Source: a virus. Taken from it: 64,000 nt of DNA. Numbering within the stretch: position 1 is the stretch's first letter; each line of letters begins with the position of its first letter. Shown piece by piece: positions 4,037 through 37,519 of this stretch. The notes under the pieces were generated by a model. That model was not told the origin of the DNA, did no database searches, and saw nothing but the letters and a program-made list of their open reading frames with translations. The translations under genes and the position numbers were made by a program. The DNA lies in the IMG/VR virus record IMGVR_UViG_3300047174_000111, positions 1 through 64,000 of that record; one strand, 5' to 3'.

Positions 4037-4040
4037 GAAT

Positions 4041-4126: not shown

Positions 4127-4130
4127 CATC

Positions 4131-4206: not shown

Positions 4207-4210
4207 TCAT

Positions 4211-4290: not shown

Positions 4291-4293
4291 TCT

Positions 4294-4369
4294 GCACGCG
4301 TAGCAATCCAGCGATTGCACCTGCCTGTCGAGCAGGATCAGGCGGGGGCGGCACCCGTCGCGTGCGCCA
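4294..4369 (+). tRNA. tRNA-Asp(GTC)
   Basis: CCTGC-CTGTCGA-GCAGG anticodon arm, G73, CCA end. Confidence 0.85.
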
Positions 4370-4454
4370 CGTTCCCGCTCCACGGCCTCGGCCGCGCCGG
4401 GCTTGCAAGACCTGTCGCAAGGCAGGCCGGTTCCCATCGGGGACCGCGAGATTT

Positions 4455-4522
4455 GCCCTCGCCGATGGACGGCGCCTGGTTTCCTAAACCGGGGTGCGGC
4501 GGTTCGATCCCGCCCGAGGGCA
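4455..4522 (+). tRNA. tRNA-Arg(CCT)
   Basis: Loop TTCCTAA, canonical T-arm, short D region. Confidence 0.75.
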
Positions 4523-4526
4523 TTAT

Positions 4527-4598
4527 CAGTGCGTGGGTCAAAGGCTGACCGCCAGTTTTGGGTACTGGATCATGCAGGTTCGAGTCCTGCCGCACTGA
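4527..4598 (+). tRNA. tRNA-Pro(TGG)
   Basis: CCAGT-TTTGGGT-ACTGG anticodon arm, C1-G72, A73. Confidence 0.85.
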
Positions 4599-5297: not shown

Positions 5298-6517
5298 TCC
5301 TCTCCCATAAGATCGCACTCGATCCGGCACCGGAGCAGGCGGTCTATTTTGCCCGCGCGGCTGGCACGGCTCGGTTTGCATGGAATTGGGCGCTCGGCCG
5401 ATGGCAAGAAGAGTATGCGCTGTGGAAGGAATACCAGTGCGGCCCGAAGCCATCAGAAGCCTCCCTGCGACGCGAGTTGAACGCGCTGAAAGAAGACGCC
5501 TTTCCGTGGATGCTGGAGGTGACGAAGAACGCGCCGCAGCAGGCCATCAAGAACCTTGGCGCGGCCTTTAAGAACTTCTTTGATGGCCGCGCCAAATATC
5601 CCCGCTTCAAGAAAAAAGGAGTATCCCACGACAGTTTTCGGGCTGATCCCGGCCCGGACAAGCTGCATCCGAACGCTGTTGAGGTGGACGGCAAGCGTAT
5701 CAAACTTCCGGTCATCGGTTGGGTGAAGATGCGCGAAGCTGTCCGCTTCGACGGCAGGATCAAGTCCGCTATCGTGTCGCGCACGGCGGATCGCTGGTTC
5801 GTCAGCCTGAGCGTCGAAGTCAATCACACGCCGCCTGTTCGTGAAACCCAAACGGCAGGCGGCGTTGATTTGGGCGTGAAAGCTCTCGCGACACTGAGCA
5901 ACGGGACTACCATCGAAGGCCCCAAGGCGCTGCGCCGGAACCTCAAGACGCTGCGCAGACGCAGCCGTGCCCATAGTCGCAAGGTCAAAGGCTCGGCCAA
6001 CCGGCGCAAATCGGCGGCGAGGCTGGCACGGCTGCACGCACGGATTGCCAACGTCCGGCAAGACGCGCTGCACAAGGCCACCACGCGGATCGTGGAGCAG
6101 TTTGATGTGATCGGCATCGAAGACCTGAACGTGCGCGGCATGATGGCAAACGGCAAACTCTCGCGTGCCGTCGCCGATGTCGGCATGTTCGAGTTTCGTA
6201 GGCAGATCGAATACAAGGCCGCGATGCAAGGCGCTCGTATCGTCGTGGCGAACCAGTGGTATCCGTCCAGCAAAACCTGTTCCGACTGCGGCCACATCCA
6301 TACCGGCTTGACGCTTTCGGATCGGGAATGGACGTGCGGCGGCTGCGGCGTGGTTCATGACCGGGACCACAACGCCGCCATCAACCTCGCGAATATGGCC
6401 GCCAGTTCGGCGGCTACAGCCTGTGGAGCGGGACGCTCTGGCCTTGATCTCGCGATCAAGGCGAAACTGCCCGCCGTGAAGCAGGAACCTATGCATGGAA
6501 TATTTGTCTATGTTTAG
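5294..6517 (+). CDS. tnpB: TnpB RNA-guided endonuclease
   Basis: GVDLG, IEDLNV, SSKTCSDCG zinc finger, DRDHNAAIN. Confidence 0.95.
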   Translation: MILSHKIALDPAPEQAVYFARAAGTARFAWNWALGRWQEEYALWKEYQCGPKPSEASLRRELNALKEDAFPWMLEVTKNAPQQAIKNLGAAFKNFFDGRAKYPRFKKKGVSHDSFRADPGPDKLHPNAVEVDGKRIKLPVIGWVKMREAVRFDGRIKSAIVSRTADRWFVSLSVEVNHTPPVRETQTAGGVDLGVKALATLSNGTTIEGPKALRRNLKTLRRRSRAHSRKVKGSANRRKSAARLARLHARIANVRQDALHKATTRIVEQFDVIGIEDLNVRGMMANGKLSRAVADVGMFEFRRQIEYKAAMQGARIVVANQWYPSSKTCSDCGHIHTGLTLSDREWTCGGCGVVHDRDHNAAINLANMAASSAATACGAGRSGLDLAIKAKLPAVKQEPMHGIFVYV

Positions 6518-22096: not shown

Positions 22097-22133
22097 CAAA
22101 AACCCCCGCCGACACGAGGTCGGCGGGGGTTTG
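22097..22133 (-). terminator. Terminator closing the hammerhead gene array
   Basis: CCCCCGCCGAC/GTCGGCGGGGG stem with a T-run on the minus strand. Confidence 0.8.
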
Positions 22134-22497: not shown

Positions 22498-22553
22498 GCT
22501 CCTTGTCAGGCCGGCGATGATGCCGGCGACCCGGCGAGGCCGGGTTTCGGAGC
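22498..22553 (-). ncRNA. Hammerhead-like HHR1 (core CUGACAA)
   Basis: GCTCC-GAAA-CCCGG/CCGGG-TC-GCCGGC/GCCGGC-CTGACAA-GGAGC; the 5-bp stem II covers the SD. Confidence 0.7.
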
Positions 22554-22555
22554 GG

Positions 22556-22993
22556 TCAGGCGGCGCCGCGCCGCAGCCACGCATCGAACAGGTGGAAAAG
22601 CGGTTGCGGTAGCTCGCCGCGATACCAGGCGGTGTCGAAACACCAGCTGCCGCCCGGCCATTTGACTTGCGCGATCTCGCGATCGTAGGCGAGGCCGCCC
22701 AGACGTGCGCGCGGGCGGATGCGATGCTCGTAGGCCTCGAAGAACCTGAAGCGTTCGGGCAAGCACTTGCCGTCGCGCTCACTGAAGGCATTCGCGATGC
22801 GCGAGAGCACCGCCTCCGAGGCGTTGGTGATCGACGGCCCCTGATTATCGCGCAGATCGATAATCAGCACCCATGTGACGCCGTCGACGGTGGTGTCGGC
22901 GACGCCGAACGTGGTGGGAAGGCCCGCCGGAGGCATGGCCGTGAGGCGATTGACCTGGATAGCAGGTGGTTCCGTCGTAAGGGTTTGGGTCAT
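22556..22993 (-). CDS. Hypothetical protein (array gene)
   Basis: Bounded by HHR2 and HHR1; IIDL...PSITNA.E.V motif. Confidence 0.7.
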   Translation of the reverse strand: MTQTLTTEPPAIQVNRLTAMPPAGLPTTFGVADTTVDGVTWVLIIDLRDNQGPSITNASEAVLSRIANAFSERDGKCLPERFRFFEAYEHRIRPRARLGGLAYDREIAQVKWPGGSWCFDTAWYRGELPQPLFHLFDAWLRRGAA

Positions 22994-22997
22994 TGGT

Positions 22998-23049
22998 GGC
23001 TCCTCAGGCCGGCGTGACGCCGGCGACCCGGCCGAAACCGGGTTTCGCC
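22998..23049 (-). ncRNA. Type II hammerhead HHR2 (canonical CUGAGGA)
   Basis: GGC-GAAA-CCCGG/CCGGG-TC-GCCGGC/GCCGGC-CTGAGGA-GCC. Confidence 0.85.
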
Positions 23050-23051
23050 TC

Positions 23052-23252
23052 TCAGCGATCGACGACGCGGATCAGCAGGAAGGCCTCGCCGTTCTGGGCA
23101 TCGCCCTGGACCTCGTCGAGGGCAAGCGAAAGCCCTTCGGGGCCCTCGTCATCGATGTTGTCAATCAGCGATCGCATCTGATCGCGCGTCATGTCGAAGC
23201 CGCGCCAGTTCTCCGGCTCCTTGCGGGGCCAGGAGGTGTCGTTGTCGTCCAT
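23052..23252 (-). CDS. Small acidic hypothetical protein (array gene)
   Basis: ATG after the GGAG of HHR3. Confidence 0.65.
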   Translation of the reverse strand: MDDNDTSWPRKEPENWRGFDMTRDQMRSLIDNIDDEGPEGLSLALDEVQGDAQNGEAFLLIRVVDR

Positions 23253-23260
23253 GGTGATCT

Positions 23261-23307
23261 CCTTGTCAGGCGGCAAATCGCCGCGACCCAGCGAGGCCGG
23301 GTTTCGA
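23261..23307 (-). ncRNA. Hammerhead-like HHR3 (core CUGACAA)
   Basis: C-GAAA-CCCGG/CTGGG-TC-GCGGC/GCCGC-CTGACAA-G. Confidence 0.65.
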
Positions 23308-23310
23308 TAA

Positions 23311-23700
23311 TCAGCCCCAGCGCGCGTCGGCCAGGATCTCCGTGGTCTTCGCCACGATCTCATGAGCGTTCGGCCATTGCCAGACCTTGGCCAGCGCGAT
23401 GGACTGCCAGACGTTCGGCAGGCTCCCATGTCCTTTCGGAAACAGCGCTTCAATGTGGATGTAAATCCCTTCATTGGAGCCCTCCACCGCAAAACATGCG
23501 ATCCAGCGCGCATCTGACGGCCACGGCATGCTGTCATATCGGTTTTGGTTTACCGAGTTGATGTAGCTCAAGTCGGAGAATTCGCTTTCTCCGAATTCGA
23601 TCTTCATATCCTTGAGCCGCGCGTTGATCTGCTGGATCACTTCGCGGCATGTCAGCCCATCGACCTTGATTCGGCCGACGGTGATGGTGCTTCCATTCAT
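23311..23700 (-). CDS. Hypothetical protein (array gene)
   Basis: Bounded by HHR4 and HHR3; GSNEGIYIHI motif. Confidence 0.7.
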   Translation of the reverse strand: MNGSTITVGRIKVDGLTCREVIQQINARLKDMKIEFGESEFSDLSYINSVNQNRYDSMPWPSDARWIACFAVEGSNEGIYIHIEALFPKGHGSLPNVWQSIALAKVWQWPNAHEIVAKTTEILADARWG

Positions 23701-23708
23701 GATGGTAA

Positions 23709-23754
23709 CTCCTCAGCCCGGCGGAATGCCGGGGACCCGCAGGGGCGGGTTTCT
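23709..23754 (-). ncRNA. Hammerhead HHR4 (CUGAGGA; A precedes GAAA)
   Basis: A-GAAA-CCCGC/GCGGG-TC-CCCGGC/GCCGGG-CTGAGGA-G. Confidence 0.75.
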
Positions 23755-23760
23755 CTGTTG

Positions 23761-24003
23761 TCAGGCCGCTTTGTCGGCGCCCTCATGGATGAAGTAGCGG
23801 TCGCCATCGCGGCGGACCTTGCCAGCACGCTCCAACCCACTCATCAGGCTGGTGAACTGGCTGTAGCTGCAGCCGTGCTGCATCAGCGCGGCGTAGAGCG
23901 GGCCACCCGGACAGCCCGTTGGGCCGGCCGCCTTCACGGCATCGAGGGTGGCATCCACGACTAACCCAAGTGCTTCGCGCTGCTGCGCTGTCATCTGAGG
24001 CAT
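23761..24003 (-). CDS. Small winged-helix-like hypothetical protein (array gene)
   Basis: AAGGAG RBS; bounded by HHR5 and HHR4. Confidence 0.7.
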   Translation of the reverse strand: MPQMTAQQREALGLVVDATLDAVKAAGPTGCPGGPLYAALMQHGCSYSQFTSLMSGLERAGKVRRDGDRYFIHEGADKAA

Positions 24004-24017
24004 CGTATCACTCCTTC

Positions 24018-24065
24018 ATCGTCAGCGCCGGCGATATTGCCGGCAGACCCGCGTTGCGGGTTTCG
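24018..24065 (-). ncRNA. Hammerhead HHR5 (CUGACGA)
   Basis: C-GAAA-CCCGC/GCGGG-TC-TGCCGGC/GCCGGCG-CTGACGA-T. Confidence 0.75.
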
Positions 24066-24067
24066 TG

Positions 24068-24610
24068 TCACGCGGCCTCCTCTGTGGCAGCCTCCAGTTC
24101 GACCCGTTCGACTGGCACGCGGGCGAACGGGGTGTTCGCCAGCATCCATTGGCGCAGGCTCTTGAGCAGCGCGCCCTGGCTCGACGCATCCGCCGGCTCG
24201 ACGACGCGGCCGCGGTATTCAATTGCGGTCAGGGCGTCGCGCGCGGTCCGGCGATACAACTCGCTGCCGTGGAGATAGACCTCGGGGATAGGGGCCTCGA
24301 GACCCATGTTCCATCGGAGCTGACCCAGGTAATGCGGCATGCGGCTGAGCATGCGTGCTCGCGCTGCATCGAGCTTGCGCTCGTACGTCACGATCGGCGT
24401 GCCGGTGTGGATGAAGCCATGAAGGGCCGAAAGCACCACAACCCAGGGAATGCGGTGCTGCATCGGGTCGTTGGGCTTGTCGAGCTTGTCCTGGCATTTT
24501 CGGTAGGTGCGCCATGACGGCCCGTCGTAGACTTCGAAGGCCGGCTTCGGCGTGACGACGTGCCGCTTGGTCTGTGAGCACGCCATGATCAACGCTCGTT
24601 CGATTGGCAT
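24068..24610 (-). CDS. DUF6884/YaaA-like protein (array gene)
   Basis: IMACSQTK...A.EVYDGP...VLSALHGFI...YERKL. Confidence 0.6.
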   Translation of the reverse strand: MPIERALIMACSQTKRHVVTPKPAFEVYDGPSWRTYRKCQDKLDKPNDPMQHRIPWVVVLSALHGFIHTGTPIVTYERKLDAARARMLSRMPHYLGQLRWNMGLEAPIPEVYLHGSELYRRTARDALTAIEYRGRVVEPADASSQGALLKSLRQWMLANTPFARVPVERVELEAATEEAA

Positions 24611-24620
24611 AGGGTTTCTC

Positions 24621-24664
24621 CTCTTCAGGGCCCCGGATTGGGGCGACCCGCAGGGCGGGTTTCG
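24621..24664 (-). ncRNA. Hammerhead HHR6 (CUGAAGA)
   Basis: C-GAAA-CCCGC/GCGGG-TC-GCCCC/GGGGC-C-CTGAAGA-G. Confidence 0.75.
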
Positions 24665-24665
24665 C

Positions 24666-25520
24666 TCAGTCGGCCGCGTCCTGGAGCGCATCGACGGGTA
24701 CGTCCAGTGGGACATACTCGGCGAGCGCGCCGGCCGCATCCGCATTGTGCGCCGTGAGAAGCGCGATCCGGTTACCGAAGTCCATCCGTTGCCAGGCGGG
24801 CTTCGCCTTTTCGCGCGCCTCCCGCTGGCGCAGCTTCCAGTTCCAGCCGCCCAGGATATGGGCGGGCGTGTACCACACCTCGTCGAACTCATTACGGAGA
24901 GTGTCGCCGCGGTAGATCATGCAGGGGATGTGCATGAGCGAAGCCTGGACGTAGGTCATGTGGACGCAGCGACGGTCGATGTCGGCAGCGGTGACGTGCA
25001 GCGTCTGCTGGTAATTGACATCGCGATCCGACAGCGCATCGGCCATGGCGACAATCATGCCGCCGGGGCCGCAACAGGGTTCGCAGGCGGTGACGAAGCC
25101 ATGCTGCTCGATGACCTCTTTCATCGCATCGGCATAGACCATCGTCGCCATCATCTTCGACACGCTGTAGGGCGTGAAGAACTGGCCGTGCCAGTCGCCT
25201 CGCAGCTCAAGGCCTGTCCATATCGCCCCCATTACATCGCGGGGGTGCGCATCGAGCACCGTCGTGACGTCTCCGAGCAGTGTGGCGATCACCGCCAGCT
25301 CCTCGGCCTTGTAGCCCTTGGCAATTTCGAGGTAGCGTTTCTCGCGCTTCTCGCGCTGCTGCAGGTCGACCGCGTTGCTGATGGCGATGGCGGCCATCTC
25401 GACGAAATCGCCGAAGACGGTCTCGGGGCGGTGACTGTCCAGGCTCTTGATGTTCGAGACGATAGAATTGATCCGCGCCTCCGGCGTGAGCAGGATTGGC
25501 GCTTTTTTCTTGGCGGACAT
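24666..25520 (-). CDS. N6-adenine DNA methyltransferase-like protein (array gene)
   Basis: GQFFTPY, EPCCGPGGM, ADID, GDTL motifs. Confidence 0.8.
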   Translation of the reverse strand: MSAKKKAPILLTPEARINSIVSNIKSLDSHRPETVFGDFVEMAAIAISNAVDLQQREKREKRYLEIAKGYKAEELAVIATLLGDVTTVLDAHPRDVMGAIWTGLELRGDWHGQFFTPYSVSKMMATMVYADAMKEVIEQHGFVTACEPCCGPGGMIVAMADALSDRDVNYQQTLHVTAADIDRRCVHMTYVQASLMHIPCMIYRGDTLRNEFDEVWYTPAHILGGWNWKLRQREAREKAKPAWQRMDFGNRIALLTAHNADAAGALAEYVPLDVPVDALQDAAD

Positions 25521-25527
25521 AGGTTTG

Positions 25528-25573
25528 CTCCTCAGGCACGCGGGATGCGTGCGACCCGGCAAGCCGGGTTTCG
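25528..25573 (-). ncRNA. Hammerhead HHR7 (CUGAGGA)
   Basis: C-GAAA-CCCGG/CCGGG-TC-GCACGC/GCGTGC-CTGAGGA-G. Confidence 0.8.
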
Positions 25574-25577
25574 GAGG

Positions 25578-26144
25578 TCACTCGATCAACTTGATCCACG
25601 AGGTGTAGTCGGGCGACATGATCATCGTGACGAAGGCTTCAGTGCCTGGAATGCCCTGCCGCGCGTTGTACCGGGTGGGCTGCTCGAGGCCGTAGAAGTT
25701 CTTCAGGGCCTTCTTGCTCCACAGGCAGTAGCCTTCCTCGATCAGTTCATGGGCGCGCCGGCCGATCGAGCCGGGCGCGAACCAGCATTCGCCGGTGTTG
25801 ATCTGGCGCTGCCAGAAGGCGATGAGCTGCTTCGCGTTGGCCGGCAGGACGTCGTTGATCTCGTCGGTCAGCGCTTGGGCGGTGTCGAGTTCCAGTGCAG
25901 CGAGGACGGTGACGCGCTCGCCGAACGGCATGTTGCGCCAAACGGCGCCGGTCGTCAGGAACGAGTGCTCGAAGTAGGCCTCGCGCTGCTCCTGCGTGGC
26001 CGCGTGGGACGCGACGACATGGGGCTTGCGCGTGCCGTCGGGCAGCTTCTCGACGATCATGACGTTCGAGACGCACTCCTCGACCAGACTGGATGCGGCG
26101 AGCTTTGACTGCTCGTCGTCGCCCAGCATGACGATATGGTTCAT
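25578..26144 (-). CDS. Hypothetical protein (array gene)
   Basis: WQRQINTG..W...GSIGR.A.ELIEEGYC; bounded by hammerheads. Confidence 0.7.
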   Translation of the reverse strand: MNHIVMLGDDEQSKLAASSLVEECVSNVMIVEKLPDGTRKPHVVASHAATQEQREAYFEHSFLTTGAVWRNMPFGERVTVLAALELDTAQALTDEINDVLPANAKQLIAFWQRQINTGECWFAPGSIGRRAHELIEEGYCLWSKKALKNFYGLEQPTRYNARQGIPGTEAFVTMIMSPDYTSWIKLIE

Positions 26145-26149
26145 GGGAT

Positions 26150-26209
26150 ACTCCTCAGGCCGGCGGAATGCCGGCGACCGGCCCGGCCATAGGCCTGGGC
26201 AGGTTTCGT
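26150..26209 (-). ncRNA. Hammerhead HHR8 (CUGAGGA)
   Basis: AC-GAAA-CC..long stem III..GG-TC-GCCGGC/GCCGGC-CTGAGGA-GT. Confidence 0.8.
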
Positions 26210-26802
26210 CACGCCGCGAGGCGCAAAGGCTCCTCGGCGCGGGCCGCGACTGCTTGCTCAACAGCTGCGTCCTTTTTCCGCCCGGTTTTCTTGTCGTAGT
26301 CGGCTTTCCAGACGACTGGGTCGGCGTGCTCCGGGTTGACCTTGATCGAGGCCCGCCAGACAGCCCAGACGTCGCGGTCGCGCAGCTCAGGCACAACAGT
26401 GCAGGTCTCCAGCTTCATTTCGAAGCTGCTGATCTCCACGCCATGCGGGATGATGCCGCCCGGCCAGAACTCGGCATGAGGGATGAACTGGTCACGCGGC
26501 ATCCGGATCGTGGTGCCGCGCTCGCTTTTGTAGCTGGCCTGATCCTTCTTCAGCCGCCCCCACCGTCCCGCGTCGCATACCTGTCGGAACATGTAGCGCG
26601 GGCCGTGCCGATTCATCGCGTTGGCTTTCGCGGCGGCGAGCAGCTTGCTGAACAGCTCGCCGCGCGCCATGCGCCGAGGCTTGGCAAACGGTGGCTCGCC
26701 GAGGCTGAGGCCGGCCCTTTCCCGTAACACCGGAGGGCAGTATGGCATCATGTCGGCTATGAGCTGCGCGACCTTCTGGGTCTGCGTCAGTGCTTTGGGC
26801 AT
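26209..26802 (-). CDS. Basic hypothetical protein (array gene)
   Basis: ATG after the GAGGAG of HHR9. Confidence 0.7.
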   Translation of the reverse strand: MPKALTQTQKVAQLIADMMPYCPPVLRERAGLSLGEPPFAKPRRMARGELFSKLLAAAKANAMNRHGPRYMFRQVCDAGRWGRLKKDQASYKSERGTTIRMPRDQFIPHAEFWPGGIIPHGVEISSFEMKLETCTVVPELRDRDVWAVWRASIKVNPEHADPVVWKADYDKKTGRKKDAAVEQAVAARAEEPLRLAA

Positions 26803-26809
26803 GGTCTTG

Positions 26810-26862
26810 CTCCTCAGGACCGCGGGATGCGGTCGACCGCCCCTGGCGATGGGGCGGTTTCG
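26810..26862 (-). ncRNA. Hammerhead HHR9 (CUGAGGA)
   Basis: C-GAAA-CCGCCCC/GGGGCGG-TC-GACCGC/GCGGTC-CTGAGGA-G. Confidence 0.8.
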
Positions 26863-27068
26863 GAGCGGAGGCGTCATTCCTCCTTGGGCTGTTGCACCAG
26901 ATCGGAATCGCGATCGACGGCGGCTTGTTCTTCAGCGGTCAGCCTGCCAGCGAGCCGGTCGATCCCATCGTCACGATCGTCGTCGTCAAGCCATTCGATG
27001 ATGTCTTGCGCGCTTGGCACGATTTCTTCCGGACTGAAAGTGCGAAACTTTCTGCGCCGAGGGATGCC

Positions 27069-27284
27069 TCAGCTTCCAATTTCGATATTCAACTGCTCGG
27101 CGTCTTCCAGCGCGAGCACAATGCCTTCTGGATGTTCGTAGCGCGCGCTGAGATCGGAACCGACAGGATAGACGGAAGCGTCTAGGCGCGTGGCTGCATC
27201 TACGTCCTCAACGTGTAGGATCAGAATGTCTCCGTTTTCATTCCTTCTCCCGAAGAATGAGCCGTATTTGTCGCTGTAGGCCAT
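27069..27284 (-). CDS. Small hypothetical protein (array gene)
   Basis: AAGGAG RBS from HHR10. Confidence 0.7.
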   Translation of the reverse strand: MAYSDKYGSFFGRRNENGDILILHVEDVDAATRLDASVYPVGSDLSARYEHPEGIVLALEDAEQLNIEIGS

Positions 27285-27292
27285 TATTTTCT

Positions 27293-27337
27293 CCTTTTCA
27301 GGCCACAGGATTGCGGCGACCCCTCGCGGGGTTTCGG
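27293..27337 (-). ncRNA. Hammerhead-like HHR10 (core CUGAAAA)
   Basis: CC-GAAA-CCCC/GGGG-TC-GCCGCA/TGTGGC-CTGAAAA-GG. Confidence 0.65.
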
Positions 27338-27348
27338 GTCAGTCAACG

Positions 27349-27600
27349 TCAGGCCGCGACGGGCGCGTCCTTCGATGCCGCAGGCCACGGCAGGCTCTCG
27401 GCGACGCCGGCGAGATGGTAGATCTCCATCGGTGTCACTCCAGGCGGCGCTTCCAGGCGACAGGCGTTGCGCGCAAAATGCACGGTGGCTTGGGGGGAGC
27501 CTGTAATGGCGTTTTCCGCCAGTCTCTTGAGGTGTGGAAACTTGGTCACGTAGGCGCCAAGGACATGGGCCGGGATAGGACCAGGTGTTTGAGATGGCAT
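27349..27600 (-). CDS. Small hypothetical protein (array gene)
   Basis: Bounded by HHR11 and HHR10. Confidence 0.65.
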   Translation of the reverse strand: MPSQTPGPIPAHVLGAYVTKFPHLKRLAENAITGSPQATVHFARNACRLEAPPGVTPMEIYHLAGVAESLPWPAASKDAPVAA

Positions 27601-27608
27601 ATTTCTCT

Positions 27609-27653
27609 CCTTTTCAGGCAGCTCGATTGCTGCGACCCCTTTTGGGGTTTCGG
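27609..27653 (-). ncRNA. Hammerhead-like HHR11 (core CUGAAAA)
   Basis: CC-GAAA-CCCC/GGGG-TC-GCAGC/GCTGC-CTGAAAA-GG. Confidence 0.65.
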
Positions 27654-27654
27654 C

Positions 27655-27897
27655 TCAGTCGAAAGTGGGCTGCAGTCCTGCCCAAGCTTGGCATGCTCGA
27701 TCTCTCCAATCCGCAACCATGTGACGGCCGGCCGGCGAACTTTCGGGATCGTCTATGACGATCCCGTTAGATTGGCAGAACGAAATGAGAGCTGATTTCG
27801 AGTTCGAATTATACCAGTTTAGGGCCGCTTCATACGCATCGAAGCTCGGGAACCGGAAGAAAGCACCCGTCTCATCGTGCTGATATTCGTATGTCAT
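27655..27897 (-). CDS. Small hypothetical protein (array gene)
   Basis: Bounded by HHR12 and HHR11. Confidence 0.7.
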   Translation of the reverse strand: MTYEYQHDETGAFFRFPSFDAYEAALNWYNSNSKSALISFCQSNGIVIDDPESSPAGRHMVADWRDRACQAWAGLQPTFD

Positions 27898-27907
27898 AAG
27901 CGTCTCT

Positions 27908-27958
27908 CCTTTTCAAAACCTGCTCATCTGCAGGCGACCCGGCCAAGCCGGGTTTCGG
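27908..27958 (-). ncRNA. Hammerhead HHR12 (U3-A8 covariant core UUGAAAA)
   Basis: CC-GAAA-CCCGGC/GCCGGG-TC-GCCTGC/GCAGGT-T-TTGAAAA-GG. Confidence 0.7.
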
Positions 27959-27959
27959 G

Positions 27960-28211
27960 TCAGTCGATTGGAACGAGCGGTCGCCCCGTCCGGGGCGCAC
28001 GGTCGTCCGCCTCGTCGAGGCGGGTGACAACCATTGTATTGTGTCGGCCCTGCTTGTCAACGGCCGTCATCACGGCAGGCTCGCCGGTCAGCAACATGTT
28101 GACGAAGCTGACCCAGCTGCGGGTCGTGTTGGCCGTCCGTCCCAGGCTGTGGGCCGTCATCTCGATCGGCCGCTGGCCCGGACAGGTAACCTTGAACTTT
28201 TGCGGGTTCAT
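27960..28211 (-). CDS. Small hypothetical protein (array gene)
   Basis: ATG after the GAGGAG of HHR13. Confidence 0.65.
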   Translation of the reverse strand: MNPQKFKVTCPGQRPIEMTAHSLGRTANTTRSWVSFVNMLLTGEPAVMTAVDKQGRHNTMVVTRLDEADDRAPRTGRPLVPID

Positions 28212-28220
28212 TGTAGTCTG

Positions 28221-28273
28221 CTCCTCAGGCACCGGGATTGGTGCGACCACCCGGGCAGACCCAGGCGGTTTCG
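28221..28273 (-). ncRNA. Hammerhead HHR13 (CUGAGGA)
   Basis: C-GAAA-CCGCCTGGG/CCCGGGTGG-TC-GCACC/GGTGC-CTGAGGA-G. Confidence 0.8.
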
Positions 28274-28738
28274 TCACGCCGCGATGCGTTCAAGGACGGG
28301 CAGCGGCATCAGGCTGGGCAGCTCGATTGACAGGGCCAGCGCGCAGTCGGCGCCGGCGTCGTTCAGGATCGAGAGCCGCCGACCGAAGTCAAACATCTCC
28401 CAGCGCGGCTCGGCTTGGTCCTCCAGCTCGGCGCGGTACGTGTCCTCGTCGAGGATGCATCGCGTCGCCTGTTCGCACAGCTCCAGGGCCATCTGCGCAG
28501 CCACGGCCATGCCGGGGAAGCAGATCAACGCCGCCTCGCAGTCGCGTGGGTCGAGGTCGATCAGCTTCGCGGCATGGCGTCCGAAGATGCTGCAGACCCG
28601 CAGCGTGATGGCTGCGGCCTGGGCCCGGTCGAGCGGGCACGATGTGTCGAACGTCGATACGGAGAGCCAGTCCTGTTGGCGGTCTGTCGCATAGACGCGC
28701 CAGGGGAAATCCCTGACGTGTCCCATGGCGCATTGCAT
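28274..28738 (-). CDS. Hypothetical protein (array gene)
   Basis: Bounded by HHR14 and HHR13. Confidence 0.7.
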   Translation of the reverse strand: MQCAMGHVRDFPWRVYATDRQQDWLSVSTFDTSCPLDRAQAAAITLRVCSIFGRHAAKLIDLDPRDCEAALICFPGMAVAAQMALELCEQATRCILDEDTYRAELEDQAEPRWEMFDFGRRLSILNDAGADCALALSIELPSLMPLPVLERIAA

Positions 28739-28747
28739 GGATATCTC

Positions 28748-28793
28748 CTCTTCAGATCCGCATCAGTGCGGATGACCCGCTAGGCGGGTTTCG
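28748..28793 (-). ncRNA. Hammerhead HHR14 (CUGAAGA)
   Basis: C-GAAA-CCCGC/GCGGG-TC-ATCCGCA/TGCGGAT-CTGAAGA-G. Confidence 0.8.
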
Positions 28794-29342
28794 TCAGAAG
28801 CTCTCGTGCAGGATCATGTACGTCAGGTCGGCCAGGTCGTCTTGGCAGGTGCCGGTGATGGGAAGATCGTCGTCGAGTGCCAGCGCGGGATCCGCGTCGA
28901 CGTGCTCGGCCAGCGCGACCCGTTCGCCGAATGGCAACGAGCGCCACTTGCGGCGCGCGAAGGTCCTCGCGGCGCGGTCCTGTTCCGGACCGGCGATGCA
29001 TTCACCGCCGCCGCAATTGCAGGATTCGAACGTCTCGTTCATGGCCTCGATCAGCGCGCGGAACTGCCATTGCAGCCCGGGCCGGACGACGAGAACCCGG
29101 GTGCCGGCCGCGTCGCGGACGATCATGTAGCCGTCCGGGTTCGGCTCAGCCTCCCGCATACAGACGATCCAGGCACCGATGCCGCGGGTGTCCTGTCCAT
29201 CGCTAAACAGGTGAAGCACGATGATCCAGTCGGGCGGCGGCTTCGGCGTGAGATAGTCGCCGTTCCCGATCGGGCGAGGCAGCGGCAGCATGCCGTCGAT
29301 CTCGTCGTCAGGGACGGCTTCGTCGCATGTCAGATACGACAT
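28794..29342 (-). CDS. Hypothetical protein (array gene)
   Basis: Bounded by HHR15 and HHR14. Confidence 0.7.
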   Translation of the reverse strand: MSYLTCDEAVPDDEIDGMLPLPRPIGNGDYLTPKPPPDWIIVLHLFSDGQDTRGIGAWIVCMREAEPNPDGYMIVRDAAGTRVLVVRPGLQWQFRALIEAMNETFESCNCGGGECIAGPEQDRAARTFARRKWRSLPFGERVALAEHVDADPALALDDDLPITGTCQDDLADLTYMILHESF

Positions 29343-29348
29343 GGGGTG

Positions 29349-29398
29349 TCTCCTCGGGCAGCGTGATTGCTGCGACCCGCTCCTCAGGCGGGTTTCGA
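29349..29398 (-). ncRNA. Hammerhead-like HHR15 (core CCGAGGA)
   Basis: TC-GAAA-CCCGC/GCGGG-TC-GCAGC/GCTGC-CCGAGGA-GA. Confidence 0.65.
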
Positions 29399-29403
29399 TT
29401 GGG

Positions 29404-29535
29404 TCAGATGATGGACAGCACAGCCAGCAGGGTCAGCACGCCGCAGAACTCGCTGACGGCGGGGATGAGCATGATGGCGAGGCAGATGCCGGCTGCGGAC
29501 ACGACCAGCGCGGCCGCAGCGGCGATCCAGCGCAT
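29404..29535 (-). CDS. 43-aa hydrophobic membrane peptide (array gene)
   Basis: MRWIAAAAALVVSAAGICLAIMLIP...; ATG overlaps the upstream stop. Confidence 0.55.
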   Translation of the reverse strand: MRWIAAAAALVVSAAGICLAIMLIPAVSEFCGVLTLLAVLSII

Positions 29536-29726
29536 CAGCGCGTCTGGGCCGAGCCGTCCAGGGTCTTCAGCTTGACTCTCCCCTTGCGGGCCTCGATCTC
29601 GGCCAGCTCGGGCGACATCTCGATCGGGATGCCACCGTCGTAATACCAGCAGCGCGCGTGACCGGCCGTGAAGCGACGCATCACGGTGATGATCGGGGCG
29701 CGCTGCGGGCGCGGGCGGGCTTTCAT
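29535..29726 (-). CDS. Small basic protein (array gene)
   Basis: ATG after the GAGGAG of HHR16. Confidence 0.6.
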   Translation of the reverse strand: MKARPRPQRAPIITVMRRFTAGHARCWYYDGGIPIEMSPELAEIEARKGRVKLKTLDGSAQTR

Positions 29727-29732
29727 CTCAGT

Positions 29733-29799
29733 TCTCCTCTTCTGGCCGGCGGAATGGCCGGCGACCCGATCGGCGCGCGGCCGGGCGGGTTTCGGAAGA
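29733..29799 (-). ncRNA. Hammerhead-like HHR16 (core CAGAAGA)
   Basis: TCTTCC-GAAA-CCCG..CGGG-TC-GCCGGC/GCCGGC-CAGAAGA-GGAGA. Confidence 0.6.
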
Positions 29800-29821
29800 T
29801 CAGGATTCTGTCGTCGTGATT

Positions 29822-30103
29822 CTACAACAACGGCGAAACCCGGAAGCATCTCACCAGTCTTGTGTAATTCATCGGTGCTGGATTACCGTCGAGCGTGAAC
29901 CAGCACAGTCGGTATTCGTGAACCACGATTGGTGGCCAATGCTCGTTCGGCAGGCTGAGGGTTTTCCGAAAGCCCGGCGACAACTTAAAGACCAGCCAAA
30001 TAAACGGTTCGTTCTTACCTTGCATAAAGGCCACAAGGTAAATTCCAGCGCGATGCAATGGATTTTCGCGTTCAGCTTGCGTCCATTCGGCTTCGCTCAT
30101 CAT
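29822..30103 (-). CDS. Hypothetical protein, start uncertain (array gene)
   Basis: ORF between HHR17 and HHR16; the RBS-linked ATG at 30129 is out of frame. Confidence 0.4.
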   Translation of the reverse strand: MMSEAEWTQAERENPLHRAGIYLVAFMQGKNEPFIWLVFKLSPGFRKTLSLPNEHWPPIVVHEYRLCWFTLDGNPAPMNYTRLVRCFRVSPLL

Positions 30104-30137
30104 CGACAGGATGTCTCTTCGTTACACATATGGTGTT

Positions 30138-30187
30138 TCTCCTCATGCGGCGCAATGCCGCGACCCTGCCCGTAGGCAGGGTTTCGA
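30138..30187 (-). ncRNA. Hammerhead-like HHR17 (core AUGAGGA)
   Basis: TC-GAAA-CCCTGCC/GGCAGGG-TC-GCGGC/GCCGC-ATGAGGA-GA. Confidence 0.65.
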
Positions 30188-30424
30188 TCAGTCGAGATCT
30201 ATTGGCCGTCCTTTGAATGTCCGGTTGGCGCATTCCATCGCGGCCATAATGGGATCGGCCTCACGGCCGTCCTGCTCACTGCCGTCTGGGCATTTCAGTG
30301 TCCAGCGGCCATCGGGATAGACCTTCTCGACGAAGCCATAGCGCTTGCGAGCCGCCACGGTCTGGCCGACGGCCCAGCCGGCGTCTTTCAACGCCCTCTG
30401 GGTGCCCGGCTTGAACTCGCTCAT
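30188..30424 (-). CDS. Small hypothetical protein (array gene)
   Basis: ATGA overlap with the upstream gene. Confidence 0.6.
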   Translation of the reverse strand: MSEFKPGTQRALKDAGWAVGQTVAARKRYGFVEKVYPDGRWTLKCPDGSEQDGREADPIMAAMECANRTFKGRPIDLD

Positions 30425-30732
30425 GCCTCGGCGTCCATCTCCTCGTCGATCTCGTCCTGGTCCTGCTTGGCGCATTCGACCCACGACCAGGTCTGCACGA
30501 AGAACCCGTCTTCGCCTTCGCTGACAGCGGCGCCGGCATCATCGATCTCCAGCTCTTCGCTGGTCTCGACCATGGCGATTTGCCAGGGCTTGGCGAGCGA
30601 TGCGCGCCATTTCTCGATAATGGCGGCGGCCTGCTCGGCATAGGGGCTGGCGGCGTCGTTGGCGATTTGAGCGAGAAGGTTCACCGCGTCGGCGGCGGGT
30701 GCGAACGTGATGTCGAATGGTTCGATTGGCAT
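30421..30732 (-). CDS. Acidic hypothetical protein (array gene)
   Basis: ELEIDD..AVSEGEDGFFVQTWSWV; RBS from HHR18. Confidence 0.7.
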   Translation of the reverse strand: MPIEPFDITFAPAADAVNLLAQIANDAASPYAEQAAAIIEKWRASLAKPWQIAMVETSEELEIDDAGAAVSEGEDGFFVQTWSWVECAKQDQDEIDEEMDAEA

Positions 30733-30740
30733 TTGGTGTT

Positions 30741-30788
30741 CTCCTCATGCAGCGGGATGCTGCGACCCTGCGCGGAGGCAGGGTTTCG
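30741..30788 (-). ncRNA. Hammerhead-like HHR18 (core AUGAGGA)
   Basis: C-GAAA-CCCTGC/GCAGGG-TC-GCAGC/GCTGC-ATGAGGA-G. Confidence 0.65.
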
Positions 30789-31283
30789 TCAAGGTTGCCA
30801 CTTGCGATCGGCCGTATCCAGCGGCCCCCAGGTCGGCTCGTTGGTCTGGTATGCTAGCGTTTCATAAACGCTTGCGAACAGCCGTCGGAAGTTATCGCTC
30901 CCGCCTCTTGCGAACTCCTGGAGGGAGTGGCGCCGTCCCGCCATACGCAGGACCACGTGGTCGTCTTCAAAATCAATCTGAACGACCGTCAAGCTGGAAC
31001 GCACCCACTGATGGCGGCCGGCGCCGTCAGTAGTGTATCCGCAGCAGGCTTTCGCCTCAGCCGGAAGGACAGCGGCAACCGCGCGCCGGACGCCAGCAGT
31101 GGCGACAAGCACCTTTCCTGGCCACCACCATGGGATCAGGTCGATCCCCTCTGGGGCAAGGCTCATGTCGAACGGCACGTGGCCGATCGACGTCCCATAG
31201 TAACCCTCATGGGCTTCCGCCCACTCGGCCACTTCGTCGCGGGCGGCGGCGATATTGCTGGCCTTGGCAACATAAAGCATCAA
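30789..31283 (-). CDS. Hypothetical protein (array gene)
   Basis: Bounded by HHR19 and HHR18. Confidence 0.65.
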   Translation of the reverse strand: MMLYVAKASNIAAARDEVAEWAEAHEGYYGTSIGHVPFDMSLAPEGIDLIPWWWPGKVLVATAGVRRAVAAVLPAEAKACCGYTTDGAGRHQWVRSSLTVVQIDFEDDHVVLRMAGRRHSLQEFARGGSDNFRRLFASVYETLAYQTNEPTWGPLDTADRKWQP

Positions 31284-31288
31284 TTTTT

Positions 31289-31342
31289 CTCCTCATGCAG
31301 CGAAATGCTGCGACCCGCAGCCCCGAAAGGCTGCAGGTTTCG
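31289..31342 (-). ncRNA. Hammerhead-like HHR19 (core AUGAGGA)
   Basis: C-GAAA-CCTGCAGCC/GGCTGCGGG-TC-GCAGC/GCTGC-ATGAGGA-G. Confidence 0.65.
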
Positions 31343-31353
31343 TCACGTTCGAC

Positions 31354-32553
31354 TCAGATCTGGTTGCGGGTCGCGCGCGACATGAGCTTCGTCGCGACCT
31401 TTTCGATCTCCAGTCGGCGATCGGTGTTGGGCACGGTTCGAGCGACTGCAGTGATCCCGTTCACCATGTCCCAGATGCTCTCCGGTTCACGGCCTTCTTC
31501 GCGTTCGTGGGTTTCGAAGATGGTGTCGACCATCTTCATCGAGAAATCGAGCCCGACGAGCAGCTTCTTGCGCTCGTCCTTGTCAGCGCCGGCCTTGGTC
31601 TCCTTGCAGACCTTGATCCCTGCGAGCAGGGCGGTCGGCTCGGAGCGGGCGTAGCGCTCCAGGGCGGGCTGGGCCTCGCGTTCGAAACGCAGCGAACCGT
31701 GCTTCGAATGGACGATGCTCAGCTTCTCGAAGTTCTCCACGCCCCACATCGTTCTGTTTTGGCAAACGCCGCGCAGAACGAAGGTGGCAATGCCCAAAGC
31801 ACGAGTCCCCACTTCGGAGTTGAAGGCATAGAACCCACGGAACACGAGATCGGGATCGCCATTGGCGAGCTTGCCGATCTCGAGTGGCCGCGTGTCGTCG
31901 ACCAGGAACATGAAGACGTCCCGGTCGGACGCGTAAAGCGTCGTGGACTGCTTGGTGACATCGACGTAGGGGTTGTAGGTCATCGCCCTCCAGTCGATGC
32001 ATCCGGGGATCTTCCAGTGGGTATCGCCCGTCCCGTTCCCGGCGATGCGCTGGACGGCCGCGACCAGTTCCGCATCATAGATGCGGCCATAATCGGGGCC
32101 GGTGACAGCACGCAGCGAGAATTCCTCGCTTTCGCCGAACATCTTCATCGGCATCTCGGTCCCGCGTCTGACGAGACCGTGCTGCAGATTGATCGCGGCG
32201 AGCGGAGCCGGCAGGTCGCGCAGATAGGATGCCGGAGCCTTGACCAGCGAACACATCTGGCCGAACGAGTGGTGGGTCGGCGTCAGCGTGCGGCCTTCCG
32301 GCGTGATCACCCGCAGCATGTCGGGATCGTCGCGTCGTGCGTCGATCTTGAGGTCCGACATCGACACGAGTTCCTCGAACGAGGTATCGCGACGCTTGCC
32401 CACGGCCTCGGCCAGGGCGTTCAGCGATGTGTATCGCTGATCGTCCGGGCGCGAGAACCATTGCTTGGACAGGTCGCCACGAGCCTCGCCGCGGCTCACG
32501 TCGATGCTGCGGGTGCCCACCGTGCCGGGCGCGGCTGGCGTGATCATGTTCAT
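31354..32553 (-). CDS. DUF932-like protein (array gene)
   Basis: IDVSRGE...WFSRPDDQRY, LRAVTGPDYGRIYD, LYASDRDVF, NSEVG...VCQNR. Confidence 0.75.
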   Translation of the reverse strand: MNMITPAAPGTVGTRSIDVSRGEARGDLSKQWFSRPDDQRYTSLNALAEAVGKRRDTSFEELVSMSDLKIDARRDDPDMLRVITPEGRTLTPTHHSFGQMCSLVKAPASYLRDLPAPLAAINLQHGLVRRGTEMPMKMFGESEEFSLRAVTGPDYGRIYDAELVAAVQRIAGNGTGDTHWKIPGCIDWRAMTYNPYVDVTKQSTTLYASDRDVFMFLVDDTRPLEIGKLANGDPDLVFRGFYAFNSEVGTRALGIATFVLRGVCQNRTMWGVENFEKLSIVHSKHGSLRFEREAQPALERYARSEPTALLAGIKVCKETKAGADKDERKKLLVGLDFSMKMVDTIFETHEREEGREPESIWDMVNGITAVARTVPNTDRRLEIEKVATKLMSRATRNQI

Positions 32554-32563
32554 GGGAACATCT

Positions 32564-32624
32564 CTCTCTTCAAGCCGGCAAAATCGCCGGCGACCCGCAT
32601 CCTCCTCTGTATGCGGGTTTCGAA
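32564..32624 (-). ncRNA. Hammerhead HHR20 (core UUGAAGA)
   Basis: TTC-GAAA-CCCGCAT/ATGCGGG-TC-GCCGGC/GCCGGC-TTGAAGA-GAG. Confidence 0.7.
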
Positions 32625-32653
32625 CCGGAGTCACATAAAAATGTGACTCCGGT
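32624..32653. promoter_or_regulatory. 13-bp inverted repeat containing CACAT-N4-ATGTG
   Basis: ACCGGAGTCACAT-AAAA-ATGTGACTCCGGT. Confidence 0.6.
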
Positions 32654-33120: not shown

Positions 33121-33446
33121 GAACCTCTCCATTTTCTAGGATTAGGGCATAATGCCCCTTTAACTATATAGTTACTTGAGTGGCACAATTCAATACGTCA
33201 AAGCGCATTCGTATGGCGTCGATGGGTTGTAATCGACTCACCTAGGCCTTTTCGATGTTGCGTGGATTGTGGTGTTCAGGCTCAGATGGGTGGCCCGGAG
33301 GGAGTAGGATCCCTCCGGGCCGTCTGCGGCGTTTCCGGGGCCGGCGCCGCAGTATGCACCGAGCCGAATGGGCCCAAGATAGCGGAGAACCGTGTCTTGG
33401 CACAACATCATTATGTCGTGAGTGGGGTAAAAACCCCAACAGAACC

Positions 33447-36537: not shown

Positions 36538-36927
36538 TCAGTCGGCGATCTGCCGGGTCGGGGATGCCGGGTTGTGGCAGCCGTAGGCCGCGTCGATGTC
36601 GGCCGGCGTCATCTCGGTGACGACGGCGCGCGGCTCGGTCGTGAGCCGAAGCGCACCGAGCCATTCGGCGGCATCGCACACGGCGGGGATCGCGACGCGG
36701 GCTGCGTAATAGACGCCCACCGCGAGCCCGGCGCCGAGCGCCAGGCCGCCGAGGACCGCGACCGCCGGGGTCACGGTGATGCCGGCGACGACCAGCGCAT
36801 CTGCGGCGAGGAATTCGCCCAGCGCGGAGCTGGCTACGAATCCACCGGCGGCAGCCGCACTGCTGCGCGTGAACTGCGAAACGCTTTCGATGGCGTTGTA
36901 CGGCAGATCGTTGAGCATGTTGGACAT
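36538..36927 (-). CDS. Membrane protein, paralog A
   Basis: AAGGAG RBS; Gly/Ala-rich transmembrane hairpin. Confidence 0.7.
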   Translation of the reverse strand: MSNMLNDLPYNAIESVSQFTRSSAAAAGGFVASSALGEFLAADALVVAGITVTPAVAVLGGLALGAGLAVGVYYAARVAIPAVCDAAEWLGALRLTTEPRAVVTEMTPADIDAAYGCHNPASPTRQIAD

Positions 36928-37003
36928 GGGGTAACTCCTTGGTGATGAAAGTGATGTTGGTGCCGATTGATCAACGGTTCGGCGCCGTTCGGGGAGCGTG
37001 TTG

Positions 37004-37066
37004 CTCGTCAGGCCTGGGATTTCACCAAGCGACCGGCCGGCCCCTTTCGAGGCGCAGCAGGTTTCG
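37004..37066 (-). ncRNA. Hammerhead HHR21 (CUGACGA)
   Basis: C-GAAA-CC..GG-TC-GCTTGG/CCAGGC-CTGACGA-G. Confidence 0.7.
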
Positions 37067-37067
37067 A

Positions 37068-37457
37068 TCAGGCCGCGACCAGGTCGCGCTCGGCGAGGTC
37101 CAGCGCCTCGCAGGAGGTTGGCCGGAATTCGTGGCGACGCGGTGTGGCTATGATCTTGATATCGTCAGGCGCTCTCTGCTCGACGGGCGCCGTGAGGACT
37201 TCGACGGCTTCAGGGTCCGATCCGCCGAACTGGCGGCAGACCCAGCCATAGGCATCGCTGACCGGGTCAGCAGCCTGTTCGACTCCGTACGCGATGCCAG
37301 CGCCCGCGAGGGCGACGGTACCGACGACGACCCCGCCGAGGATGAGGACGGGGGCCAGCTCGGTGACCAAAGCGGCCGCACCGAGCGCCGTGCTCGCTGC
37401 GGTTACCACGGAGAACGCGCCGAAGGCGAACTTGGCGGCATTTTCGGAAACGGACAT
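37068..37457 (-). CDS. Membrane protein, paralog B
   Basis: GGGAG RBS; similar to 36538-36927. Confidence 0.7.
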   Translation of the reverse strand: MSVSENAAKFAFGAFSVVTAASTALGAAALVTELAPVLILGGVVVGTVALAGAGIAYGVEQAADPVSDAYGWVCRQFGGSDPEAVEVLTAPVEQRAPDDIKIIATPRRHEFRPTSCEALDLAERDLVAA

Positions 37458-37468: not shown

Positions 37469-37519
37469 CCTTTTCAAGCATGCGTTGATGCATGCGACCG
37501 CGGAGTGATGCGGTTTCGG
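37469..37519 (-). ncRNA. Hammerhead HHR22 (U3-A8 covariant core UUGAAAA)
   Basis: CC-GAAA-CCGC/GCGG-TC-GCATGC/GCATGC-TTGAAAA-GG. Confidence 0.75.

Follow-up and report, generated by a model that had tools for sequence, protein, structure and literature searches.

Units of the type II hammerhead family between the small genes of an uncultivated tailed phage

Hammerhead-type units in a leftward block of small genes

The window analyzed here comprises the first 64 kb of a linear virus record of 96,571 bases in IMG/VR (IMGVR_UViG_3300047174_000111; CheckV completeness of 92%), and its subject is an array of short RNA units with the layout of type II hammerhead ribozymes, which lie between small genes on the minus strand at 22.5–32.6 kb. 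The 96.6-kb record encodes terminase, portal, and ERF genes. The array occupies a leftward block of small genes upstream of recombination genes for an exonuclease, an ERF recombinase, and a DUF2303 protein, which are on the same strand, downstream of the array, and free of ribozyme units, while the rightward arm carries genes for the terminase, the portal, and a Mu F-like protein. This agrees with the phage early-operon setting that an earlier, sequence-only reading of the locus had proposed, and "early accessory block of a tailed phage" is a fair description of the small-gene block. Since the nearest terminases (35–40% identity) come from phages of Rhizobium, Roseobacter, Paracoccus, and Acetobacter, we infer that the host is likely to be alphaproteobacterial. 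Within 10.1 kb, 20 units precede 20 of ~25 open reading frames (ORFs), and the genes that they flank are small orphans, except for those encoding a DUF932 protein (399 residues), an N6-methylase-like protein (284 residues), and a DUF6884 protein.

In total, 22 hammerhead-type units were found, all on the minus strand: the 20 of the array, numbered HHR1 to HHR20 with increasing coordinates, and two copies outside it, at 37.0–37.5 kb. Matches to a loose motif (GAAACC...GGTC...HNGANRA) number 32 and fall at 22 distinct sites, without exception on the minus strand; 100 shuffles give an expectation of 0.15. The 20 minus-strand units are located where the sequence-only reading had placed them. With a covariance model that we built from the copies of the array, 21 copies score 41–70 bits and one 23 bits, and no further credible copies were detected in the 96.6-kb genome, the only other matches being weak and on the plus strand (E values of 0.008 and 0.37). 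Rfam model Hammerhead_II (RF02276) reports 10 copies at E < 10, and an 11th in a genome-wide run, aligning the reported units to the full model (positions 1–66).

The units are 43–63 nucleotides (nt) long and share a single order: a stop codon, C11.1, G12-A13-A14, the stem III hairpin (opened by an A15.1-U16.1 pair), C17, the stem I hairpin, a seven-base box, G10.1, and a start codon. All 22 copies thus show the type II circular permutation (GAAA, stem III, GUH, stem I, CUGANGA), in which stem II contains both ends. Their register with the flanking genes is tight. The upstream stop codon, TGA in 20 cases and TAG in one, ends 1–13 nt before G12 in 18 of the 21 copies preceded by a called gene, and the distance from box to start codon is 7–15 nt in 20 of 22 copies. 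GAAAC and GUC, earlier described as invariant in the array, are so in all 22 copies, the two extra ones included, as are G5, A6, and A9, while the free consensus position N7 varies (G in 10, A in eight, and C in four). This invariance reflects selection rather than recent copying, because the copies are only 50–78% identical to each other.

Covariation strengthens the assignment. In a model-fitted alignment, stems I and III are 94% paired, and pairing falls to 33–41% when the partners are slid by one to three columns. Double (compensatory) changes occur in 11 of the 15 modeled pairs, values that none of 500 shuffles reached, and in nine of 10 variable pairs when stems I and III are considered alone, which largely upholds the earlier observation that these stems differ in sequence between copies and yet always pair. 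Minimum-energy folds recover both hairpins in nearly all units. Loop I has a shared 5′ A(A)UY motif in a hairpin of near-constant length, which may hint at another kind of contact. Judged from order, RF02276 matches, and covarying stems, the units are members or descendants of the type II hammerhead family, and it is likely that, in this uncultivated tailed phage of a probably alphaproteobacterial host, they punctuate the leftward block of small early genes cistron by cistron.

The same compensatory changes bear on whether the repeats could be DNA-level cassette boundaries for recombination, either similar to integron attC sites or of the kind that delimits phage mosaics, with an incidental RNA fold. 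That the genes between units are unrelated orphans, and that similarity is slightly higher between neighboring units than between distant ones (p = 0.004), would fit such boundaries, as would the finding that two distant homologues of the methylase-like gene (23–24% identity) in other viral contigs (L049:6444–7211 and L058:4476–5222) each have a type II hammerhead immediately upstream, as though ribozyme and gene moved as a single cassette. However, the changes preserve RNA pairing and not DNA sequence, all copies are on one strand and keep a constant register with the stop and start codons, inspection by eye shows neither an inverse core nor core sites of the attC type in the units, and sequences that are 50–78% identical are poor substrates for homologous exchange. 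Recombination boundaries are therefore a very improbable explanation. Tandem gene duplication, considered separately as the origin of similar neighboring units, was rejected since the flanked proteins are not paralogues.

Canonical and variant cores

A canonical C3–A9 box (CUGANGA) is found in 10 of the 22 copies, six of which pass strict rules; these are the same six (HHR2, HHR7, HHR8, HHR9, HHR13, and HHR14) that had been singled out as fully canonical. For each unit, we give in brackets its span, the G12 of GAAAC, and the nucleotide after which cleavage is predicted, all on the minus strand. HHR2 (23000–23047; 23046; 23025), with box CUGAGGA and a stem II of 3 base pairs (bp), is the sole copy above the Rfam gathering score. 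HHR7 (25528–25573; 25572; 25553) precedes the N6-methylase-like gene and has a 1-bp stem II and an upstream CCUCC that offers an alternative pairing with the GGAG of the core. HHR8 (26151–26208; 26207; 26176) combines a long, imperfect stem III with a 2-bp stem II. HHR9 (26810–26862; 26861; 26835) scores 34.9 bits with the Rfam model and has a 1-bp stem II, a competing GCUCC/GGAGC helix being predicted in its minimum-energy fold. HHR13 (28221–28273; 28272; 28245) has a 10-bp stem III and a 1-bp stem II, and HHR14 (28748–28793; 28792; 28774; CUGAAGA), whose stem I is AUCCGCA/UGCGGAU, scores 28.7 bits with the Rfam model.

The four other canonical boxes occur in copies that depart from the consensus elsewhere. 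HHR4 (23709–23754; 23753; 23734; CUGAGGA) has an A11.1/G10.1 mismatch, and HHR5 (24018–24065; 24064; 24046; CUGACGA) a C11.1/U10.1 mismatch, together with a stem I closed by U-G and a Shine–Dalgarno (SD) sequence located 8 nt further downstream. HHR6 (24621–24664; 24663; 24645; CUGAAGA) has one extra C between stem I and C3. The fourth is the weak copy outside the array (37004–37066; 37065; 37031; CUGACGA), with a long, imperfect stem III, which lies 77 nt before gene 36927–36538 and scores 19.4 bits with the Rfam model and 23.4 bits with our own.

The remaining 12 copies deviate at C3, U4, or G8, which are conserved in 16, 20, and 16 of the 22 copies, respectively, so that describing the heptamer merely as CUGANGA-like was apt. 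C3 is replaced by A (AUGAGGA) in HHR17 (30139–30186; 30185; 30162), HHR18 (30741–30788; 30787; 30764), and HHR19 (31289–31342; 31341; 31312), the last with an 11-bp stem III, and by U (UUGAAGA, with a U3-G8 wobble) in HHR20 (32566–32622; 32621; 32592), the first unit of the array, before the DUF932 gene. U4 is replaced by C (CCGAGGA) in HHR15 (29350–29397; 29396; 29374) and by A (CAGAAGA) in HHR16 (29737–29794; 29793; 29763), which has a 4-bp stem II. G8 is replaced by A in four copies, reading CUGACAA in HHR1 (22502–22549; 22548; C 22528) and HHR3 (23262–23306; 23305; 23285), and CUGAAAA in the 43-nt units HHR10 (27294–27336; 27335; 27318) and HHR11 (27610–27652; 27651; 27634). HHR1, which is followed by gene 22492–22136 and scores 27.9 bits with the Rfam model, has the best stem II of the array (5 bp, GCUCC/GGAGC, SD included), and our parse of it agrees with the cleavage between 22528 and 22527 that had been predicted. 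In HHR3, the SD sequence GGAG is the 3′ strand of stem II. Lastly, U3 and A8 covary (UUGAAAA) in HHR12 (27909–27957; 27956; 27936), which has one extra U after stem I, and in the second copy outside the array (37470–37518; 37517; 37496), which scores 50.9 bits with our model and precedes the membrane-protein-like gene 37457–37068.

Two observations concern the immediate surroundings of these variants. HHR17 is followed by a 9-codon mini-ORF (window 30100–30129, minus strand), the stop codon of which overlaps (ATGA) the start of gene 30103–29822; it could be a leader peptide, a device for translational coupling, or a damaged gene start. Each of the two extra copies precedes a gene for a 129-residue, transmembrane-looking protein (window 36538–37457), the pair being 34% identical over 70 residues (E = 0.014), and an endonuclease-like gene (36043–35519) comes after the two.

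Fusion with the ribosome-binding site and comparison with other viral hammerheads

In 19 of the 22 copies, the SD sequence GGAG begins at N7 or at 10.1 and is thus fused to the ribozyme. It either lies inside the box, N7-G8-A9-G10.1 being part of GGAG, as in CUGAGGAG, or follows it (CUGA-NNA-GGAG), in which case GGAG starts at 10.1 as the 3′ strand of stem II. We compared the array with 107 type II hammerheads from 80 other viral contigs, of which 104 have a parsable box. All 104 boxes are canonical, which indicates that the box variants of the array are not the norm for working copies. N7 in these copies is U in 63, C in 32, A in nine, and never G, in contrast with the array, where it is G in 10 of 22 and never U. 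Many of the sampled copies have loop–tail complementarity of the GUGGC/GCCAC type, and by our own parse most of those outside contig L086 have two to four contiguous pairs in stem II.

A ribosome-binding site (RBS) that is part of the core or of stem II brings to mind ribozyme-gated translation. The RBS would be fully available only after cleavage and release, or would compete with ribozyme folding, and the graded core variants would set cutting rates; these would govern ~20 early proteins from a single promoter in their relative amounts, timing, and stability. We consider such gating a tentative and rather unlikely proposal. If true, it would parallel, in a natural system, the engineered ribozyme insulators and SD-sequestering ribozyme switches. 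RiboJ, a ribozyme insulator, is one such engineered device. In synthetic bacterial hammerhead and twister devices that sequester the SD until cleavage (Felletti et al. 2016, PMC5052635), a self-cleaving motif likewise lies upstream of or overlaps the RBS, and cleavage leaves a defined 5′-hydroxyl (5′-OH) end with a hairpin and an exposed RBS. In contrast to the units described here, these devices are single copy and hide the RBS in strong helices (PMC5052635). The likeness is a functional conjecture, because the unpaired probability of the segment from SD to AUG is estimated by folding to be similar before and after the cut in most units, with no systematic gain in accessibility. For the same reason, we rejected the idea that cleavage as such releases the RBS, for which thermodynamic folding gives no support. 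Whatever its role, the fusion of RBS and core at N7–G10.1, which is not seen in the 104 other viral copies, may offer a compact natural part for multigene expression.

Proposed processing of the transcript, rival explanations, and related systems

It is likely that at least the canonical subset of units self-cleaves and processes the transcript. In the proposed mechanism, units with an intact core would cut after C17 in polycistronic RNA, during or soon after transcription. The upstream message would then end in the stem III hairpin with a 2′,3′-cyclic phosphate, 19–30 nt past G12, and, because the cut falls beyond the stop codon, it would retain that codon and no ribosome would be stranded. 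The downstream message would begin at the stem I hairpin, which would itself carry the 5′-OH, and continue with the box and a single-stranded RBS. Since stem II, the only tether between the two products in the type II topology, is only 0–5 bp long, the products would be expected to separate at once, which would make the cut irreversible and free the RBS from the core. A hairpin with a cyclic phosphate at one end, and a 5′-OH on a hairpin at the other, would be expected to slow exonucleases and the 5′-end-dependent RNase E. The ten copies with a canonical box are likely cutters, and the ten with C3A, C3U, U4C, U4A, or G8A probably cut slowly or not at all, so that mono- and oligocistronic messages would arise side by side from the operon rather than 21 uniform ones.

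Several findings weigh against working hammerhead punctuation and have to be set beside the covariation. The box deviates in 12 copies, and the six promoter-proximal units all have C3 or U4 changes, which weakens the idea that every unit is active. The gathering score of RF02276 (37 bits) is passed by one copy out of 22 (22991–23050, 37.9 bits), ten further copies scoring 17.4–34.9 bits across two runs and eleven others being unreported by either. Stem II is essentially the single pair G10.1-C11.1, which is present in 20 of 22 copies. Its contiguous length (0–5 bp) averages 1.77 bp vs. 1.48 bp in mismatched flanks (p = 0.055), and duplex energies show no cognate-specific complementarity, values for cognate 5′ and 3′ flanks of 12, 25, and 40 nt equaling those of non-cognate pairs, for which reason an extended or long-range stem II was rejected. 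A pseudoknot between loop I and the 3′ tail is not detectable, the value for the best helix being 3.09 vs. 2.99 for shuffled loops (p = 0.25). In HHR7 and HHR9, both canonical, minimum-energy folds predict that an upstream CUCC/GGAG helix, which disrupts the core, is the more stable structure. Close relatives in which orthologous junctions could be compared were not found in the searches reported below, and the evidence for a single transcript, to which we return, is also at issue.

Published work sets the scale for these departures. Apart from U3-A8, a variant pair that is natural and active, core changes are described as strongly deleterious and the positions as nearly essential, although a few are tolerated, among them U4C in a viroid (Perreault et al. 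2011, PMC3088659). A stem II of one or two base pairs has been documented in active type II hammerheads, the published one-pair example relying on a loop I/3′-tail pseudoknot (PMC3088659). The claim that all copies have the type II consensus holds for their order, GAAAC, and GUC but not for the box, which is canonical in 10 of 22 copies, with six passing strict rules. The Rfam search that had been suggested as a check had a similarly mixed outcome, RF02276 matching 10–11 copies but only one above its gathering score.

The sequence-only reading went further and supposed that all the units are efficient, one transcript of ~11 kb being cut into ~21 mostly single-gene messenger RNAs (mRNAs). The layout is indeed uniform at every junction, every ribozyme in published triple arrays was found to cleave, and the natural variants U4C, in the viroid, and U3-A8 keep a biologically sufficient activity (PMC3088659). 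Against this, ten copies have uncompensated C3A, C3U, U4C, U4A, or G8A changes, two have single-base insertions beside the core, and two are mismatched at 10.1/11.1; stem II is minimal, no pseudoknot was detected, the other viral boxes are canonical in 104 of 104 cases, and a promoter-like site within the array (28060–28033) argues against a simple single transcript. Layout and covariation thus stand, but efficient self-cleavage by all 20 units, and with it an operon cut into ~21 pieces by 20–22 efficient ribozymes, is improbable in view of the deviating boxes, the minimal stem II, and the missing pseudoknot.

At the other extreme, the units might be hammerhead-derived and now mainly non-catalytic, a pair of hairpins around the RBS that would serve mRNA-end stability, insulation of translation starts, or binding by a host or phage RNase or RNA-binding protein. 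The two hairpins, GAAAC, and GUC have been retained, in contrast to C3, U4, and G8, where selection is visibly relaxed; little is left of stem II, and the needs of the RBS would constrain a purine-rich box, in keeping with an N7 that is never U here and is U in 63 of 104 copies elsewhere. What such a view leaves unexplained is that the invariant single-stranded bases are exactly those of the hammerhead core, some of which (G12, A13, A14, C17, G5, A6, and A9) would have no obvious role in a plain hairpin spacer. Moreover, the covariation of U3 and A8 suggests that the catalytic fold is under selection, and ten copies have kept the full canonical box despite an overall identity of 50–78%. We therefore judge a loss of catalysis throughout the array to be unlikely, and prefer punctuation by units of which at least the canonical ones would cleave.

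Cleavage at successive units would also create ends that could in principle be rejoined. Each excised gene unit would carry a 5′ half (stem I and box) and a 3′ half (GAAA, stem III, and GUC) forming a chimeric hammerhead, with the ORF as loop II, that ligates its ends into a circle. Circular products were raised as a possibility by Perreault et al. (PMC3088659), and the only 10.1 that is not G (U, in HHR5) and the only 11.1 that is not C (A, in HHR4) are in neighboring units, in the order that suits a U-A pair in the chimera. Yet, over 19 neighbor pairs, the tail of unit n and the flank of unit n+1 pair over 1.42 bp vs. 1.46 bp at random (p = 0.58), a search for circular or spliced products by Perreault et al. 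was negative (PMC3088659), and no RtcB ligase is encoded by the phage, the genome of which was searched. Circularization thus appears highly improbable; a chimeric stem II between neighbors was rejected as no better than random, and only the U-A coincidence at HHR5/HHR4 stands.

The candidate promoter region of the leftward block (33130–33250, minus strand) is an AT-rich divergent intergenic region, read by eye, which holds TTGAAT-17-TATATA-like hexamers below the scan threshold. After the last ribozyme-preceded gene, there is a weak terminator-like hairpin (22104–22119, minus strand; a 6-bp stem and a T run). Scans for promoters and terminators are at chance level, with 11 terminator-like sites vs. 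11.2 expected in the array region. A site resembling a sigma-70 promoter (TTGACA-16-TACAAT, 11 of 12 matches) is found at 28060–28033 on the minus strand, inside gene 28211–27960 and ~77 nt upstream of HHR12, and because this near-consensus site lies inside the array, the array is possibly not a single transcription unit. The single transcript of ~11 kb, from a promoter at ~33.15–33.2 kb to a terminator at 22.1 kb, therefore remains an assumption. The units themselves were considered as intrinsic terminators and rejected, none being called and the sequence after stem III being GUC and stem I instead of a U-tract. A perfect 13-bp hairpin (32624–32653), located between HHR20 and the first gene of the block (33120–32665), abuts the 5′ strand of HHR20 stem II. 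It is not a classic terminator for the operon, since no U-tract follows on the minus strand, and it also explains a weak match to "Cupriavidus-1 RNA."

Hammerhead clusters that flank single genes of prophages have been known since 2011; tandem arrays cleave in vitro, an Agrobacterium triple arrangement also does so in Escherichia coli, and it was proposed that long phage transcripts are processed into single-gene mRNAs (Perreault et al. 2011, PMC3088659). Three type II hammerheads beside phage-like genes cleave in Desulfovibrio vulgaris cells (PMC8782182), and a 2019 review describes the biological role of bacterial and phage hammerheads as still elusive and largely unknown (PMC6765202). As in the array, the prophage clusters consist of same-strand hammerheads, mostly of type II, between small non-conserved phage genes, processing into single-gene or operon-length mRNAs was proposed, and U3-A8 and a very short stem II occur (PMC3088659). 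The clusters differ in being tandem arrangements on ~2-kb fragments, one of them a triple, whereas here there are 20 units in 10.1 kb plus two, more than half of the copies have core substitutions, and the RBS is fused to the core or to stem II. With the Rfam family RF02276, the units share the order GAAA, stem III, GUH, stem I, CUGANGA, an open short stem II, and closed stems I and III, but the family consensus has a loop I/3′-tail pseudoknot that the array lacks.

Arrays are also present on other viral contigs. L086, a 33-kb fragment, has nine copies in 3.8 kb at one end, L110 has seven, and L054 has five, at the same density of about one unit per 420–540 bp, between small genes and on one strand. 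Units of L086 have a 5-bp stem I with an AAUCGA-type loop, no pseudoknot, and an A11.1/G10.1 mismatch as in HHR4, and, if one A is skipped, a 6–7-bp stem II with a stop codon and an SD-like GGG inside (flanks read by eye). In contrast to the array described here, all boxes of these three arrays are canonical and none reaches 20 copies. The suggestion that division of an operon by ribozymes at this density is without known precedent is thus too strong, given the clusters published in 2011 (PMC3088659) and the equally dense viral contigs, such as that with nine units in 3.8 kb. Clustered phage hammerheads were already known, and the array is an extreme case that does not change the kinds of systems known. 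What is new is the scale (the array of 20 plus two is the largest found), the fusion of the RBS with N7–G10.1, a stem II and a pseudoknot that are all but lost, and the large proportion of copies with a variant core.

The value of the locus lies in this variety. Its 22 sequence-diverse units of 43–63 nt, in one genome and in the same context, are a graded natural series that runs from canonical to six kinds of core substitution, with a stem II of 0–5 bp. It is a ready-made test set for asking how much of the consensus is needed in cells, and whether cleavage controls the stability and translation of cistrons.

Relatives of the array were sought through several of its genes. Relatives of the DUF932 gene (≤51% identity) were examined at 39 viral loci, none of which contains a unit; a metagenome contig with a 47% identical relative of the methylase-like gene contains none either. 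With ERF as an anchor for an orthologous array, only relatives of 36–37% identity were found. A search with a pattern of the CUGAGGAG type gave no arrays, its matches being single sites (two viral and 23 bacterial), and no phage in GenBank was matched by megablast.

The rest of the genome contains no other ribozyme or RNA family at Rfam thresholds. About 11 transfer RNA (tRNA) genes are clustered at window 2066–4598, with a further long-arm tRNA-like match (3871–3954) below the Rfam cut-off, and an Rfam scan (E ≤ 1) of window 3500–4000, inside this tRNA array, matched no hammerhead of any type. A gene of the TnpB/IS605 OrfB type (window 5294–6517; 407 residues; Pfam OrfB_IS605 and a Cas12f1-like TNB) adjoins the cluster. 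Within the hammerhead array, four otherwise unrelated proteins, encoded by genes 29342–28794, 28738–28274, 26144–25578, and 25520–24666, have in common a motif of ~35 residues, W-x2-M/L-x-F-G-x-R-x3-L ... A-D-x-A-x-A-L, at 28857–28982, 28289–28429, 25818–25940, and 24681–24830, respectively, on the minus strand. The motif matches no Pfam family, and pairwise BLASTP comparisons give E values from 8e-7 to 6e-3; it may represent a shared docking or interaction module.

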